64,000 nucleotides of DNA from Thermoanaerobaculia bacterium (GCA_041671505.1 JBAZBK010000001.1:5582-69581); one strand, 5' to 3'. Counted from the first letter of the stretch, positions 7,336-30,625 are shown. The notes: a model not told the origin generated them from the sequence alone. Program-made: numbers and translations.

Positions 7336-8680
7336 GCGCCGCCTCGTCGCTCCGCCCCAGCGGAGCCGGAATCATCGCGTCGCACGTGTACATGCGATCG
7401 AGGTGATAGGCGTAGTAGCGGTAGCCGAAGTTCGTGCCGAGTGCCGTCATCCAGGGCGCGGCGGTCCGTCGCAGGCGCGACCACATCCCCGGCAGGCTGT
7501 AGGCGTGCTTCCACGCGAGCTCGGTGCCGCGCTGCAGCTCCGCCGCGGTCATCAGCGCCGGGCGGAAGACGACGTGCTGCCCGTCGTAGAGGCTCCAGTC
7601 GCGCGTCGTGATGCGCCCCTGCGCGTCGAGGTCGCGATGCAGCGGCGTCGCCGGGAACGGCGTCACGATCGCAAAGCGCGGAAGATCGATGCCTGCGCTC
7701 ACCGCGAGCTTCGCGGTCTTCAGGAAGACGTCGGGGCCGTCGTCGTCCAACCCGAAGACAAAGCAGCCCTGCAGCGCGATGCGATGCCGGTGCAGTTTCT
7801 CGACGACCTCCGCGTAGTTGCCCGGAACGTTGAATCCCTTTCCCGTCTGCCGCAGCGACACCGGCGAGAGCGATTCGAGTCCCATGAGCAATCCCCGACA
7901 GCCGCTGCGCGCCGCGAGCGCGAGAAGTGGCGCGTCGTCGCAGAGGAGCGTCGTCGCCAGTCCGTACCATGCGATCCGCAGAGGGACGAGCGCCTCGAAC
8001 AATTCGGCCGCGTACTCCTTGTCGGCGATGATGTTGAGGTCGACGAAGATCGCGTGCTTCGCGCGGCGCCGGCGGATGTCTTCGACGATCGCCTCGACCG
8101 GCTTCTGGTAGGGCTTTCGTCCCCACGCCGTCGGCACGACGCAGAAGCTGCAGTTGTGGATGCAGCCGCGCGTCGCCTCGAAGACGTTCGCGGTGAGGTA
8201 GCGACCCTCGGGCAAAACCGAGCGATCGGGAAGCGGATAGCCGGTCAGTGTGAGATCCGGCCGCTGGTCGTAACGGCTCTTCATCGCCCCGGCCGCGAAG
8301 TCTCGCAGCAGCTGCGGCCAGCTCTCCTCCGCGTAGCCGACGACGATCGCGTCGGCGTTCGGCGCCGCGTCGTCGGGGACGAGCGTGACGTGAGGCCCCC
8401 CGAGGACGACGGGGATGCCGCGAGCGCGAAACTCCGCGGCGAGCTCGTAGGCGCGCATCGCGGTTCCGGTGATCACCGTCATCCCGACGAGATCGACGTC
8501 GATCGAGGTGTCGACGTCCTGAATCCCCTCGTCGAAGCAGACGACGCTCGCGTCGAGCTCGGGAGGGACCAGCGCAGTGAGCGTCGGGAGCGTCAGCGGC
8601 ATGTAGCGCAGCGACTTCCTGAAGATGCCCTTCCGATAGCGGTAGAGCGGTCCCTTGGGTGAGATTAGTGCGATTCGCAT
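7322..8680 (-). CDS. B12-binding radical SAM enzyme (class B), paralog 1
   Basis: 452 aa. MRIALISP... B12-binding N-terminus and an ATRGCIHNCSFC radical SAM motif. Confidence 0.85.
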   Translation of the reverse strand: MRIALISPKGPLYRYRKGIFRKSLRYMPLTLPTLTALVPPELDASVVCFDEGIQDVDTSIDVDLVGMTVITGTAMRAYELAAEFRARGIPVVLGGPHVTLVPDDAAPNADAIVVGYAEESWPQLLRDFAAGAMKSRYDQRPDLTLTGYPLPDRSVLPEGRYLTANVFEATRGCIHNCSFCVVPTAWGRKPYQKPVEAIVEDIRRRRAKHAIFVDLNIIADKEYAAELFEALVPLRIAWYGLATTLLCDDAPLLALAARSGCRGLLMGLESLSPVSLRQTGKGFNVPGNYAEVVEKLHRHRIALQGCFVFGLDDDGPDVFLKTAKLAVSAGIDLPRFAIVTPFPATPLHRDLDAQGRITTRDWSLYDGQHVVFRPALMTAAELQRGTELAWKHAYSLPGMWSRLRRTAAPWMTALGTNFGYRYYAYHLDRMYTCDAMIPAPLGRSDEAAREIA

Positions 8681-8782
8681 CGTGTGCGCTCTAGGTTTTC
8701 GCGGTGACTCGAGATTCGATGACCATCATAAGGCGCGGCGAGGGGACTCCCTTCCCGCGGCGCCGTAATGGTGACGAAGGTT

Positions 8783-10261
8783 TCACGCGTCCGCCCCCGC
8801 GACTGATCCGGGGCTGAAGCTTCCGTCATGGCTGCGCTGGCGTCGCGCGAAACTCACGATCGATGCGCGGAACGTCTCGAGAAGTCGCCGCGCGCGGGCG
8901 TCGTCGAGCGCTTCGATCTCGCGAGAGGCGCTCTCCAGCGCCCGTTCGGAGCGCGTGAGCTCTGCCGCCGACCATGCGCGGAACGCTTCGCTGCAGCGCA
9001 GCTCGCCCACCGAGACGTTCGACCAGGCTGAACGAGGCACGTTGACGAGCCCGTGCGCGAGGTCGTCGTCGAGATCGCGGAAGACCGAGCACCAGGCGAG
9101 CGCACCGAGCAGCGCCGGGACATCGCTCGCTCGCGCGCGACAGCCGGTGACGACGAGCATCAGGTCGACCGAGAGCTCGAAGGTACGGCGATGATGCGCG
9201 GCGAGCTGCCGTTCGTCCCAGACGGCTCGCGCGAGAACACGCTCACGATCGACGCGCATTTCGCACACGAGCGCGATGAATTCGGCCTGCGGGTCGGCCT
9301 CGTCCGAGCGAATGGCGTCGAGCTCCGCGAAGAGCGCTCCCGTCAGTCGGGAGAGTGGTTCCGACGTGAACCGCCGACGCGTCATCTGGTCGATGAGCTC
9401 GTCGACGACCTCGAGCGGTTCCCGCGCCGACGCACGGTCGCCATCGAGCAAGTCGTCGATCCACTGCGCCGTGCAGAAGGCGAAGCGCACGGCACGCCTC
9501 GCGCGCCAGCGAAGAAGCGAGGGAAGCCAGATCGCGAGAAAGATCACGAAGTAGCGGCGGTGCCTGATGGAGAATCGCGCGCACTGCTCGAGACAGCAGA
9601 GCTCGGCCCAGAGATTCGAGCGCGATTCCCGCCGCTCGAGAGGCCGGTAGACGAGCAGTATTCCCGCCGCCGCGAGCGCGGCTCCACCGACGAGATCGAC
9701 GAGATGATGCTCCTGGATCAGCAACGCAGACGCCGCCACCGCCGCGCTCCAGCCGATCCAGAGCGCGCGCCCCATCGCACCGGAGCGGCGCGCATAGGCC
9801 CACGCCGCCGTGCAGGCGAAGGCGACGTGAAGCGACGGGAACTGGTTGTACTCGAGGTTGATCGCGTCGGCGAGATTGAAGAAGCCGGCGGCCCAGCCGT
9901 GAACGACGGGGCGCGCGAAGGCGGTCGTCTGCGGGAATGCGAAGAAGAAAGCAGTGGCCACGAGCGTCTCGATGACGAGGGCTGCCCAGAGCGGTACGAG
10001 CTCTCCCGGACTGCGAAACACGAACGGCGCGAGCATCAGCGCAGGAGTGATCGTGAGGTAGACGATCGCGAGCGACGGCACGAACGGGAGGCTCGACTCG
10101 AACGGCAGATCCCAGGCAGAGAGGCCGATGAGGCGCGACGTCCACCACGACGCCCCTCCGTAACAAAGCGCAAAGAGAATCGCGAATGCCGCGCAGAGCG
10201 GGATCGTGCTCCGAAGCTCGCGTCCGGGCCAGGCGAGAAAGGCCTCTCGCGGCGCCGTCAT
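8783..10261 (-). CDS. Fusion protein: N-terminal PAP2_3 (Aur1/IPC-synthase-like phosphotransferase) membrane domain plus C-terminal squalene/phytoene synthase family domain
   Basis: Start set at the ATG at 10261, which overlaps the stop of the upstream desaturase gene (ATGA). The N-terminal half is multi-TM with PAP2 motifs FPSLHVA and HHLVD. The C-terminal half carries both Asp-rich SQS/PSY motifs: FAFCTAQWIDDLLDGD (compare YAFCRvADDviD) and FRDLDDDLAHGLVNVP (compare RDxxeDxxxGRxYLP). The 781-aa ORF listed (to 11128) has 289 Arg-rich N-terminal codons overlapping the desaturase gene and is rejected. Confidence 0.75.
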   Translation of the reverse strand: MTAPREAFLAWPGRELRSTIPLCAAFAILFALCYGGASWWTSRLIGLSAWDLPFESSLPFVPSLAIVYLTITPALMLAPFVFRSPGELVPLWAALVIETLVATAFFFAFPQTTAFARPVVHGWAAGFFNLADAINLEYNQFPSLHVAFACTAAWAYARRSGAMGRALWIGWSAAVAASALLIQEHHLVDLVGGAALAAAGILLVYRPLERRESRSNLWAELCCLEQCARFSIRHRRYFVIFLAIWLPSLLRWRARRAVRFAFCTAQWIDDLLDGDRASAREPLEVVDELIDQMTRRRFTSEPLSRLTGALFAELDAIRSDEADPQAEFIALVCEMRVDRERVLARAVWDERQLAAHHRRTFELSVDLMLVVTGCRARASDVPALLGALAWCSVFRDLDDDLAHGLVNVPRSAWSNVSVGELRCSEAFRAWSAAELTRSERALESASREIEALDDARARRLLETFRASIVSFARRQRSHDGSFSPGSVAGADA

Positions 10262-24283: not shown

Positions 24284-24736
24284 ATGAAACGAGCGCAAAT
24301 TCTCGCAATTGTCGTCGGGGCCGCAATCGGAATCGCCGTCGGCATCGGGGGCTACACCTTCGCGTACGCGAAGGGAGCCGCGTATCTGCACGACGATCCG
24401 GCCGTATGCGCGAACTGCCACATCATGACCGAGCAGCTCGACGGGTGGCGCCACGGAAGCCACCGCTCGGTCGCGACCTGCAACGATTGCCATACGCCTC
24501 CCGGTCTCGTGCCGAAGTACTACGTGAAGGCGAAGAACGGCTTCTGGCATTCGTTCTACTTCACGACCGGTCTCTTCCACGAGCCGATCCGCATCACCGC
24601 GTCGAACCGCGACGTCACCGAGCAGGCCTGCCGCAAGTGCCACGCCGCGATCGTCCAGGCGATCGATCCCGTGGCGGGCCATGACGAACAGACATCCTGC
24701 CTCCGCTGCCACCGCGACGTGGGCCACAGGCACTGA
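24284..24736 (+). CDS. nrfH: cytochrome c nitrite reductase small subunit, NapC/NirT-family tetraheme quinol dehydrogenase
   Basis: N-terminal TM helix and four CxxCH motifs (CANCH, CNDCH, CRKCH, CLRCH). Start at the ATG at 24284 with an AGGAACAG Shine-Dalgarno. Confidence 0.9.
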   Translation: MKRAQILAIVVGAAIGIAVGIGGYTFAYAKGAAYLHDDPAVCANCHIMTEQLDGWRHGSHRSVATCNDCHTPPGLVPKYYVKAKNGFWHSFYFTTGLFHEPIRITASNRDVTEQACRKCHAAIVQAIDPVAGHDEQTSCLRCHRDVGHRH

Positions 24737-28392: not shown

Positions 28393-29121
28393 ATGTTCGA
28401 CCGTAAGTTCTTCGCCGAGGGTGCCGCGATCGTCGTTCTCGCGGTGCTCTGCGCAGCTGTCTCCAATTTCGCCGCCGCGAGAGAGCGTAAAGTCGCGCTC
28501 GTTGGAAGCTACCCGCGCGCACTTCAGGTACCCGCGACGGTGACCGACCCCGCGCCCGAGGCGGCGACGACGGCGGTTGCCGTGACGGACACGGCTTCGG
28601 CGACGACGACGGAAACCACGACGGCGACGGAGTCCGCCACGACAACGACGACGCCGACCGCGACGGCGACGGAAACGATGACGCCGCCATCAACGACGAC
28701 ACACGCACCGACCGCTCAAGTGAAACTCCCGGCCGGCGTTCCGGTGCCACCGAAACCGCGAAAAGTCTTCCTCCCCCATCCCGACAAGGCGTTCGTCGAG
28801 ATCAGCAGCGAAGACGCCATGCAGCTCTGGCACGAGAAGGCGATCTTCATCGACGCCCGCCGCACCGACGTCTTCGCACAGGGGCACATCGCAGGCTCAC
28901 GCTCGATGCCGGTATGGGAAGCCGACATCGACGACCGCATCCGCGCCTTCTTCGACGAAGTCACCAACCAGCAGCAGCCGATCATCGTCTACTGCTCCGG
29001 AGGCAACTGCGAAGACTCGCACATGCTCGCCGACAAGCTCTGGGGCGTCGGCTACGAAAACGTTCTCGTCTACGCCGACGGCTTCCCCGCGTGGCAGAAG
29101 ATGGGGGGAGCTGTCGAGTAG
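28393..29121 (+). CDS. membrane-anchored rhodanese-domain sulfurtransferase with Thr/Ala-rich linker
   Basis: Start at 28393 (MFDRKFFAEGAAIVVLAVL is a TM anchor) with a GGAAGGAAG Shine-Dalgarno. Contains a low-complexity T/A linker and a rhodanese domain with active-site YCSGGNCEDS. Confidence 0.75.
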   Translation: MFDRKFFAEGAAIVVLAVLCAAVSNFAAARERKVALVGSYPRALQVPATVTDPAPEAATTAVAVTDTASATTTETTTATESATTTTTPTATATETMTPPSTTTHAPTAQVKLPAGVPVPPKPRKVFLPHPDKAFVEISSEDAMQLWHEKAIFIDARRTDVFAQGHIAGSRSMPVWEADIDDRIRAFFDEVTNQQQPIIVYCSGGNCEDSHMLADKLWGVGYENVLVYADGFPAWQKMGGAVE

Positions 29122-29348
29122 GCAATGCGGAATTCGGAATGCGGAGTGCGGAATGAAGGCTCGATTTCCGCCGCTGCGCCGACACCGCAATGAAGAATGG
29201 AGAATGTCGAATGAAGAATGAAGAAGCAAGAACCGCGCAAGGGTGCGGCGAGTCCACGACTCGGGCCGTTTCTCAATTCTTCATTCCTCATTCTTCATTC
29301 GACATTTCGGTTTGCCATTCCGCAATCCGCATTCCGCAATCCGCATTG
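29122..29348. repeat. MITE-like nested palindrome, family B (arms built from GAATG / AAGAATG tandem repeats)
   Basis: Outer arms gcaatgcggaattcggaatgcggagtgcggaatgaagg and its reverse complement; inner arms caatgaagaatggagaatgtcgaatgaagaatgaagaag and cttcattcctcattcttcattcgacatttcg. A second copy is at 58051. Confidence 0.6.
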
Positions 29349-29356
29349 ACGAAATC

Positions 29357-29851
29357 ATGACGAACCTTCGCACCTTTCTCACCTCCGACTGGCTGACGGT
29401 TCGCGTGCAGATCGCGCTCGGCGCGATCTTCGTCGCGGCGTCGCTGCCGAAGCTGCTCGACCCGCCGAGCTTCGCCCACATGATCTACAACTACCGGCTC
29501 GTGCCCGGCTTCGCGATCAACGCGATCGCCCTCGTCATGCCGTGGCTCGAGATCCTCTGCGGCGTCGCGCTGATCCTCGGGATCTGGCGTCGCCCCGCCG
29601 CGGCGATCATCGGGGCGATGCTCGTCGTCTTCATCATCGCGATCTCGATCAACCTCGGCCGCGACAACGCCGTCAACTGCGGTTGCTTCGACATCACCTC
29701 GGCGAACAAGTCGCACGACGAGCTCGTCGGCGAGATGTGGTGGGTCATCACACGCGACATCGGAATGCTGCTCATGGTCGCCCAGATCCTCCGGGCCTCG
29801 GGCCAGCGGCCCGCGAGCCTGCAGGACGATGCCGTCGCCGTGGTCGACTGA
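29357..29851 (+). CDS. MauE/DoxX-family membrane protein
   Basis: Four hydrophobic helices and the MauE-type NCGCF motif. Confidence 0.65.
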   Translation: MTNLRTFLTSDWLTVRVQIALGAIFVAASLPKLLDPPSFAHMIYNYRLVPGFAINAIALVMPWLEILCGVALILGIWRRPAAAIIGAMLVVFIIAISINLGRDNAVNCGCFDITSANKSHDELVGEMWWVITRDIGMLLMVAQILRASGQRPASLQDDAVAVVD

Positions 29852-29908: not shown

Positions 29909-30535
29909 ATGAAGAACCAGAAACGATTCCGGGCAATGCTCGCGGTGACCGCGGTGGTCGCGCTCGCGACGGCCTGCTCGAAGAGCGAACCCGCGACCTC
30001 CGTCGCGAGCCAGCCCTCCGCTCCGCCCACCATGACGACCGACGTTCCGGCACAGCCCCCCGCGGGCGAGCTTCAGCCGACGCCCGGCGCGCCGGTCGCA
30101 ACCTTCACGCCGTCGACCGACACCGCGGCGCCGATGCTTCCGGTGCTCGGATCGACTCCGATCCAGACGCCGTCCGACGAGCACACACAGTCGCCCGCGA
30201 AAACGGGAGTCCGGCGCATCGCTCCCGAAGAGGCGGCGGTGCTCGTGCAGAGCGGTGACGCGATCCTCGTCGACGTCCGGTCGCAGGAGGCGTTCGTGGC
30301 GGACCACATCCGCGGCGCGAAGCACATCCCCTACGGGGAGATCGAATTGCGGGCGCGACAGGAGCTTCCGCCGACCCGCTGGATCATCCCCTACTGCACG
30401 TGACCCGCTGAGGAATCAAGCGCCGGTGCGGCGCTCAAGCTCGAGGCTCTCGGATACAAGAACGTCGCCGCCCTGCTCGGCGGTCTGCACGCCTGGGAAG
30501 ATCGCGGATACCCGATGGCAACCGGCGCGAACTGA
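29909..30535 (+). CDS. lipoprotein rhodanese-domain sulfurtransferase with in-frame TGA (30401-30403) at the catalytic position: probable selenocysteine-containing rhodanese
   Basis: Lipoprotein signal peptide (LATAC) and a Pro-rich linker, then the rhodanese domain. The listed ORF stops at TGA after IIPYCT, but the same frame continues for 44 codons (PAEESSAGAALKLEALGYKNVAALLGGLHAWEDRGYPMATGAN) that align with the C-terminal half of single-domain rhodaneses such as GlpE (C-YHGNSSKGAAQYLLQQGY...GGFEAW). The TGA falls exactly on the catalytic Cys column. A 7-bp-stem hairpin AGCGCCG-GUG-CGGCGCU begins 16 nt after the UGA. Confidence 0.55.
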
Positions 30536-30544
30536 GTCGCAACT

Positions 30545-30625
30545 TCGGGGACTTCGGGGTCACACCTGGAAACCTGGACTTCCCGGCGCCGGAAGTCCAG
30601 GTTTCCAGGTGTGACCCCGAAGTTG
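30545..30625. other. very long near-perfect hairpin (about 36-bp arms) immediately downstream of the Sec-rhodanese gene
   Basis: gcaacttcgggg(acttcgggg)tcacacctggaaacctggacttcc cggcgccgg ggaagtccaggtttccaggtgtgaccccgaagttgc. The arms are perfect apart from a 9-bp duplication in the left arm. Confidence 0.6.

Follow-up and report, generated by a model that had tools for sequence, protein, structure and literature searches.

A probable selenocysteine codon inside a rhodanese gene of a Thermoanaerobaculia bacterium, and a sister clade of the CxU rhodanese selenoproteins

Background

Selenoproteins with a rhodanese domain are well established, and reviews list five forms of them, including the CxU form, in which U is selenocysteine (Sec) (PMC13188914, PMC9312934). 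The CxU form is named rhodanese-like domain-containing selenoprotein form 3 or COG0607 form 2, corresponds to the NCBIfam model NF041203 and is exemplified by TKB26178.1 (PMC13188914, PMC9312934). It is credited to the bSECISearch paper (reference 13 of PMC13188914; reference 11 of PMC9312934). Here we describe a gene in a 64,000-nucleotide (nt) stretch of DNA from a Thermoanaerobaculia bacterium (the window, with positions counted from its first letter), in which a TGA codon at 30401-30403 interrupts a rhodanese domain. The original prediction for this DNA, made from the sequence alone, relied on rhodaneses being an established prokaryotic selenoprotein family. This holds, and the CxU form specifically is among those listed. 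The CxU rhodanese selenoprotein is already a known type; what is new here is a sister clade outside the curated model.

The best NCBIfam match of the window protein, and of all ten relatives compared with it, is NF041203 ("rhodanese_LYCAU, rhodanese-related (seleno)protein"). The members of this family and the window protein share a single rhodanese domain, the motif [L/x]-Y-C-x-U (P-Y-C-T-U in the window) at the end of the central strand, and homologues that contain Cys. Unlike the curated members, the group described here, from Acidobacteriota and Chloroflexota, has the motif YC[TAS]U-[PQLGA]-x-E-x-[ST]-S-A and scores below the threshold of the model. Further traits of the subclade of the window are a lipoprotein-type signal, a long tether of low complexity and a cassette with a MauE/DoxX gene.

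The single-domain rhodaneses GlpE (1gmx), PspE and YgaP and the Francisella rhodanese-like protein 6mxv have the same fold, and in ungapped alignments the recoded residue falls on their catalytic Cys. Unlike the canonical single-domain sulfurtransferases, the window protein has an acidic P-A-E-E-S where these have a cradle rich in G, R and S, a second invariant Cys two residues upstream, and Sec. As read from the sequence, these differences point to redox chemistry by a dyad and not to plain thiosulfate:cyanide sulfur transfer.

The Sec insertion sequence (SECIS) elements of the E. coli fdhF/fdnG type are hairpins that closely follow the UGA within the coding sequence and have G and U in the apical loop, and the candidate element of the window is of this kind. 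It differs in its unrelated sequence, in its compact GC-rich helix of 7-9 bp with a GUG or CGUGC loop, in that no bulged U was identified in it, and in being unusually invariant across two phyla.

The gene and its reading frame

The gene and the features within it are as follows.

29909..30535, plus strand: proposed Sec-rhodanese lipoprotein gene, complete, 208 codons and a stop, with Sec as codon 165 (translation, Pfam, orthologues)
29909..29977, plus strand: predicted signal peptide with a lipobox-like end (...VALATA-C23), read from the sequence
30224..30499, plus strand: rhodanese homology domain, residues 106-197, split by the UGA (PF00581, PDB matches, model)
30395..30397, plus strand: TGC, Cys163, the Cys of the C-x-U dyad (invariant in homologue alignment A1 and, as C112, in the Cys forms)
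30401..30403, plus strand: UGA probably read as Sec165 (TGA column in 78 loci, Cys as TGC/TGT in relatives, 6mxv alignment)
30419..30435, plus strand: candidate bacterial SECIS hairpin AGCGCCG-GUG-CGGCGCU, 7-bp stem and GUG loop (comparative conservation)
30533..30535, plus strand: TGA, proposed true stop codon (translation; orthologue stops lie 42-45 codons past the Sec codon)

Translation gives a 164-residue open reading frame (ORF) at 29909..30403 on the plus strand with the C-terminus ...PPTRWIIPYCT, followed by the TGA at 30401-30403. Past this TGA the frame stays open to the TGA at 30533-30535, as had been predicted from the end ...WIIPYCT onwards. The length of this continuation had been given as 44 codons; it holds 43 sense codons (PAEESSAGAALKLEALGYKNVAALLGGLHAWEDRGYPMATGAN), and the trivial difference is the stop. 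Against the joined product with U written as C, PF00581 matches residues 106-197 (E = 2e-13, 50.9 bits against a threshold of 22.2). Because this match spans the recoded position, the TGA lies inside the rhodanese domain, and the downstream part is the C-terminal half of a rhodanese, as proposed. The whole domain is present only in the joined product of 208 residues. Its sequence matches in the PDB are 6mxv, 1yt8 and 3tp9.

The gene call of NCBI and JGI for this locus (P0001) covers the 164 residues only and is labelled "rhodanese-like domain-containing protein". An independent assembly (Logan SRR18595301) carries a sequence identical to the window, so the TGA is not an assembly error. Nor is the genetic code reassigned, since 16 of the 28 long ORFs of the window end in TGA, which makes it the most frequent of the ordinary stops.

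We consider it very likely that positions 29909-30535 form one gene for a 208-residue selenoprotein, in which the UGA is recoded as Sec by means of a SECIS hairpin within the coding sequence. A Sec-containing rhodanese sulfurtransferase had been proposed for this locus, and the proposal is supported by the pairing of Sec with Cys among homologues, the conservation of the hairpin and the in-frame C-terminal half.

Conservation of the TGA column

A search of protein databases returned 23 close homologues (P0001-P0022 and P0026; 43-100% identity), and all 23 end exactly in ...IPYCT. The next relatives (P0023-25) are full-length and have Cys at the column of the TGA (YCTCPAEESSAGAA), reading ...LYCTCPAEESSAGAA..., that is YCTCPAEESS against YCT-TGA-PAEESS. 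A second search with P0023 as the seed found 203 relatives of the Cys form. In an alignment of 94 of these the residues Y111, C112, C114 and E117 are invariant.

DNA scans of metagenome and genome collections yielded 160 loci. At 78 of them (71 distinct) C-[T/A/S]-TGA is followed in frame by the conserved C-terminal half, which has the pattern ...SA[R/G]A...GY/F..V..L.GG...W..G.P. These loci come from Thermoanaerobaculia, Pyrinomonadaceae, Blastocatellia and Vicinamibacteria (Acidobacteriota) and from Anaerolineae (Chloroflexota). Cys encoded by TGC or TGT takes the place of the TGA at 8 loci with CSCP and at 42 loci with CHCG, the latter from Verrucomicrobiota. The TGA is fixed across loci while the codons around it vary synonymously (TGC/TGT, ACC/ACG/GCT/TCT). 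The DNA of seven close orthologues was fetched separately and each of the seven has the TGA and the in-frame continuation. The recurrence of the same column in the 78 independent loci and the seven orthologues argues that the TGA is more than chance. The alignment of orthologues had been put forward as a check of the prediction, and it came out in its favour: the DNA of the truncated homologues has the TGA and a conserved in-frame half, and the full-length relatives have Cys.

Among the seven orthologues the pairwise differences at the first, second and third codon positions are 0.30/0.18/0.48 after the hairpin and 0.24/0.21/0.41 in the 39 codons upstream of the TGA. Because the two patterns match, the part downstream of the TGA is under the same selection at the protein level as the part upstream.

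These data bear on the possibility that the gene is a nonsense pseudogene, in which a random stop disabled a rhodanese of the Cys type and left the downstream frame as a decaying remnant. The NCBI and JGI gene callers, which give only the 164-residue fragment, are in line with a pseudogene, as is the window itself, where no Sec machinery was found. The TGA recurs at one and the same column in 78 loci of two phyla, the downstream frame is under purifying selection and the orthologue stops lie at a similar position; a decaying remnant would instead gather frameshifts and more stops. The loci are not copies of a single recent mobile pseudogene, as protein divergence among them is 30-60%. The pseudogene had been judged improbable from the outset, and with the TGA conserved and the downstream half under selection its probability is now close to nil.

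The practical gain is a corrected gene model for a protein that is currently mis-annotated as truncated. All 22 other close homologues are truncated in this way too, and the in-frame TGA responsible for it is present in at least 78 related loci. These loci derive from Acidobacteriota and Chloroflexota of soil, sediment and groundwater. Reading the TGA as Sec restores the complete domain and would add a widespread environmental clade to the CxU rhodanese selenoproteins. The contrast between Sec and Cys within one family offers a clean case for the gain and loss of SECIS elements. Nothing here overturns current understanding.

Tandem paralogues were seen at two loci. In one (L019) two Sec forms lie side by side, with TGA at 378 and 952, and in the other (L095) a Sec form (TGA at 442) lies beside a Cys form (TGC at 1073).

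The hairpin downstream of the TGA

The hairpin starts at the 16th nt past the UGA and folds alone at -11.1 kcal/mol. The published model of bacterial SECIS (bSECIS) elements has a loop of 3-9 nt with a G within its first two positions, a stem of 4-16 bp, 16-37 nt from the UGA to the loop and a minimum free energy (MFE) of -7.5 kcal/mol or lower (PMC13188914). With a loop of 3 nt (GUG), an upper stem of 7 bp, a spacing of 22 nt and the energy given above, the window hairpin lies within all of these ranges. The 7-bp hairpin of the original prediction is present where it was placed, and its candidate role as a SECIS is supported by its agreement with the bSECIS model and by conservation at synonymous sites.

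All 71 distinct Sec loci have the same hairpin at the same distance (+16..+36), either as (C)GAGCGCC-CGUGC-GGYGYUC(G) or as the AGCGCCG-GUG-CGGCGCU of the window. In the Sec forms the information content is near its maximum at +18..+33 (AGCGCC.GUGCGG.G), third codon positions included. In the eight closest Cys forms (CSCP), which encode the same S-A-R-A-A peptide, the third positions vary in most, and two of the eight keep a near-copy. The mean MFE of +15..+40 is -11.7 kcal/mol in the Sec forms against -4.9 kcal/mol in the Cys forms. Five core pairs are kept in 95-100% of 64 distinct rows. The changes in the stem are alternations of G-C and G-U with few compensatory double changes (C-G to U-A). 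None of 500 shuffles attained the observed value for paired cells, for the covariation score or for cells with double changes, and sliding the register always gave a far lower score. Among the close orthologues the third-position differences are 0.18 in the codons of the hairpin against 0.43-0.48 on either side. The near-invariant core (AGCGCC-CGUGC/GGUGC-GGYG) can be used as a search handle for further members.

Three points limit the evidence for the hairpin as a SECIS element. The whole 76-nt stretch is no more stable than its shuffles (z = +0.66); folding energy was dropped as evidence on this ground. In a genome of 66% GC stability alone is uninformative, and the case for the hairpin therefore rests on the comparison across loci. 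The covariation is modest, as the sequence is almost invariant. Part of this invariance could stem from relatedness and from the amino-acid constraint on S-A-R/G-A-A.

The hairpin also enters into a reading with two products. Here the 164-residue lipoprotein would be real, the 43 downstream codons would be non-coding or a separate small ORF, and the hairpin would be a terminator or attenuator. In favour of it, the hairpin is GC-rich and stands just past a stop codon. The 164 residues make up about 60% of the rhodanese fold and stop short of the active-site helix and of the final strand and helix. After the hairpin there is neither a start codon nor a run of T, conservation at the protein level runs on for 43 codons, and a separate perfect 33-nt inverted repeat lies past the second stop. 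We regard two products as very improbable, and a single recoded gene remains the preferred reading.

Two Cys-form genes, L128 from 10187 and L020 from 3271, hold a near-intact SECIS core (AGCGCCCGUGCGGC and AGCGCUCGUGCGGCG). As far as such a relic can be read, it suggests a recent switch from Sec to Cys.

The rhodanese domain and its active site

The N-terminus, MKNQKRFRAMLAVTAVVALATA-C23-SK, resembles the signal of a lipoprotein, and Cys23 is kept in at least 90% of the homologues. Between this signal and the rhodanese domain lies a tether of about 75 residues rich in Pro, Thr and Ala. The wider relatives likewise begin with a signal and a Cys, or with a transmembrane anchor. The Sec-rhodanese is predicted to be exported and lipidated.

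In an AlphaFold (AF2) model of the Cys homologue P0023 the domain has a predicted local distance difference test score of 97-98, and the fold matches those of solved rhodaneses (3tp9, 3nhv, 6mxv and GlpE), with root-mean-square deviations of 1.6-2.2 A on superposition. In this model, read at the level of secondary structure, the central strand ends at Tyr, the turn is C-T-C and the helix begins at Pro. The corresponding sequence of the window protein is Y-C163-T-U165-P-A-E-E-S-S, of which Y162, C163 and T164 are invariant in homologue alignment A1.

The TGA had been placed exactly at the column of the catalytic Cys. The ungapped HMMER alignments to both domains of 6mxv agree, setting U on the Cys of CGGGFRS and CGSGFRS with high posterior probability, and counting along GlpE likewise puts U at the catalytic Cys. 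Two results speak for a different placement. The alignment to 3tp9, which has a two-residue gap, and BH2092 put Cys163 on the catalytic Cys instead, and the stretch between strand and helix in the P0023 model is only C-T-C, shorter than the canonical six-residue loop of rhodaneses. The exact column is alignment-dependent, and U at the catalytic Cys is most probably correct as the better-supported alignment. What can be said most safely is that the invariant C-x-C/U dyad at the junction of strand and helix forms the functional unit. Cys163 is most probably placed to form a selenenylsulfide with Sec165. Thiosulfate sulfurtransferases have a basic cradle where this protein has the acidic P-A-E-E-S with its invariant E, a difference that would fit redox chemistry better than simple sulfur transfer.

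Decoding of the UGA

Several observations weigh against Sec at this codon. With E. coli SelA, SelB and SelD as queries, tblastn found no selA, selB or selD in the 64-kb window, and among the fetched loci it gave a single clear match, a selD beside the Cys-form rhodanese of L020. ARAGORN and Rfam found no tRNA-Sec in the window, only tRNA-Thr, tRNA-Arg and tRNA-Ala. A scan of the window for an in-frame TGA with coding-like GC content at third codon positions on both sides found no other selenoprotein; the remaining cases are ordinary gene junctions. The NF041203 score of the window protein is 65 bits and those of the ten relatives are 73-96 bits, all short of the equivalog cut-off of 115, although U written as C may cost a few bits. 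Because of these scores the group is a sister clade and not a member of the curated family. A missing tRNA-Sec carries little weight in the fetched material, as ARAGORN found no ordinary tRNA in 48 of the loci (about 600 kb).

Acidobacteria and Chloroflexi include members that decode Sec (PMC1794560, Table 2). We infer Sec decoding in this genome from the conserved TGA with its SECIS signature and from the published Sec users of the lineage.

The UGA might be decoded otherwise, or not only as Sec: by near-cognate insertion of Trp, Cys or Arg, by insertion of Cys via the Sec pathway under selenium shortage, or with a mixture of the 164-residue and full-length products as the outcome. Sec decoding in bacteria is incomplete and depends on selenium, and no Sec machinery was seen in the 64-kb window of this genome; both would favour such decoding. 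Against it stand the hairpin with SelB-type SECIS spacing and a G/U-containing loop, the synonymous sites that are near-invariant in Sec forms and variable in most Cys forms, the pairing of Sec and Cys at an invariant redox residue, and the closest curated family (NF041203), which is a selenoprotein family. Decoding of this kind is unlikely, and insertion of Sec is preferred.

Further observations were made in these searches. The selD homologue of L020 (1788-2801 of WBZS01000043.1) shares 43% identity with E. coli SelD over 339 residues and lies directly upstream of the Cys-form (YCSCPTEHSSARAA) rhodanese of the same family. This neighbour hints at a link between the rhodanese family and selenium metabolism itself. 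The sole ARAGORN output from the 48 loci is an odd 'tRNA-???' in L164 (3813-3900); so low a yield lies below chance expectation and may be an effect of the tool. One further TGA of the window, at 24734, was considered as a Sec codon. The ORF that it ends (...CLRCHRDVGHRH) is followed in frame by the next long ORF, and the TGA was taken as an ordinary stop, after which a new start (...MTEQNDTAKT) follows. The upstream ORF carries a CxxCH motif (CLRCH).

Proposed mechanism

The UGA at 30401-30403 would be recoded by the standard bacterial route. The hairpin at 30419-30435 of the mRNA, inside the coding sequence, would bind SelB with GTP and Sec-tRNA(Sec), and this complex would bring the Sec-tRNA(Sec) to the ribosome once the UGA enters the A site. 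Decoding in this organism is accordingly presumed to depend on SelB. The product would consist of a lipoprotein-type signal, a long tether rich in Pro and Thr, and a single rhodanese domain. Sec165 would most probably occupy the canonical position of the catalytic Cys at the N-terminal end of the active-site helix, and Cys163, which precedes it by two residues where the central strand ends, would be near enough to act as its partner. The selenol may accept a sulfane sulfur, selenium or an oxidising equivalent, and the resulting Se-S(-S) intermediate may be resolved with Cys163 as a selenenylsulfide. Both the choice of U165 over C163 as the nucleophile and the substrate are putative.

The three-gene cassette

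The Sec-rhodanese gene is the third and last of a cassette, with the following features around it.

28393..29121, plus strand: cassette gene 1, rhodanese with an N-terminal membrane anchor, a Thr-rich linker and YCSGGNCEDS (PF00581, E = 1.3e-15)
29357..29851, plus strand: cassette gene 2, MauE/DoxX-family integral membrane protein with a conserved CGCFD (PF07291 MauE, E = 1.8e-26)
30551..30623, no strand assigned: perfect 33-nt inverted repeat with a 7-nt loop, arms ACTTCGGGGTCACACCTGGAAACCTGGACTTCC and GGAAGTCCAGGTTTCCAGGTGTGACCCCGAAGT, beginning 16 nt past the true stop

The order of anchored rhodanese, MauE/DoxX protein and Sec-rhodanese is conserved down to 43% identity. The anchored rhodanese is found in the same place and with the motif YCSGG[N/A]CEDS in L165 and L166; judged from its orthologues, its start is probably Met27 of the listed ORF. 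The MauE gene lies directly upstream of the Sec-rhodanese in L081, L165, L166, L167 and L168, and L164 has an unlabelled 176-aa gene in this position. The MauE neighbour was seen only at these close orthologues (L081, L165-L168 and probably L164) and not at the other Sec-rhodanese loci, so the cassette is clade-specific.

The sole characterised parallel that we found is the DoxX-SseA-SodA membrane oxidoreductase complex of M. tuberculosis, described in PMC6930017 (citing Nambi et al.) as containing a DoxX protein and a rhodanese-family thiol oxidoreductase. Both systems pair an integral membrane protein of the DoxX superfamily with a rhodanese. The cassette differs in its MauE-type partner, in its predicted extracytoplasmic rhodaneses, one of them a probable selenoprotein, and in having no SodA, and the parallel serves as a lead only.

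The composition of the cassette suggests a membrane-coupled thiol/sulfane redox relay on the extracytoplasmic side. A more specific proposal, which we offer tentatively and hold to be doubtful, is an undescribed selenium-dependent redox relay at the outer face of the cytoplasmic membrane, in which the C-x-U dyad would be connected with the quinone pool by way of the MauE/DoxX protein. Such a relay might serve the oxidation of sulfane sulfur or thiosulfate, or the handling of disulfides and persulfides as an alternative to systems of the DsbA/DsbB type. If it exists, the near-invariant SECIS in Acidobacteriota and Chloroflexota would mark a horizontal spread of the Sec form. The link between a MauE/DoxX protein, a second rhodanese and the Sec-rhodanese provides a hypothesis for the function of MauE-type membrane proteins and of CxU rhodaneses.

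The stem of the 33-nt inverted repeat is far longer than that of a usual intrinsic terminator and no obvious run of T accompanies it. It may be a terminator or a hairpin resembling a repetitive extragenic palindrome that closes the cassette.

The 235-nt spacer between the anchored rhodanese and the MauE gene (window 29121-29348) contains nested imperfect inverted repeats. Their units include AATGCGG, AATGAAG and CATTCCGCAATCCG (twice), and the arms are 33-42 nt long with 80-91% complementarity. This spacer is AT-richer than its surroundings.

A fusion was seen in a metagenome-assembled genome of Anaerolineae (L112, about 7750-8900; JAMJFU010000130.1), where a C-A-U rhodanese is joined in frame to a domain of the Rcas_1661 family. 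The partner is a thioredoxin-like (seleno)lipoprotein domain with CPYC (NF041057, 153 bits), and the fusion likewise points to extracytoplasmic thiol-disulfide chemistry.

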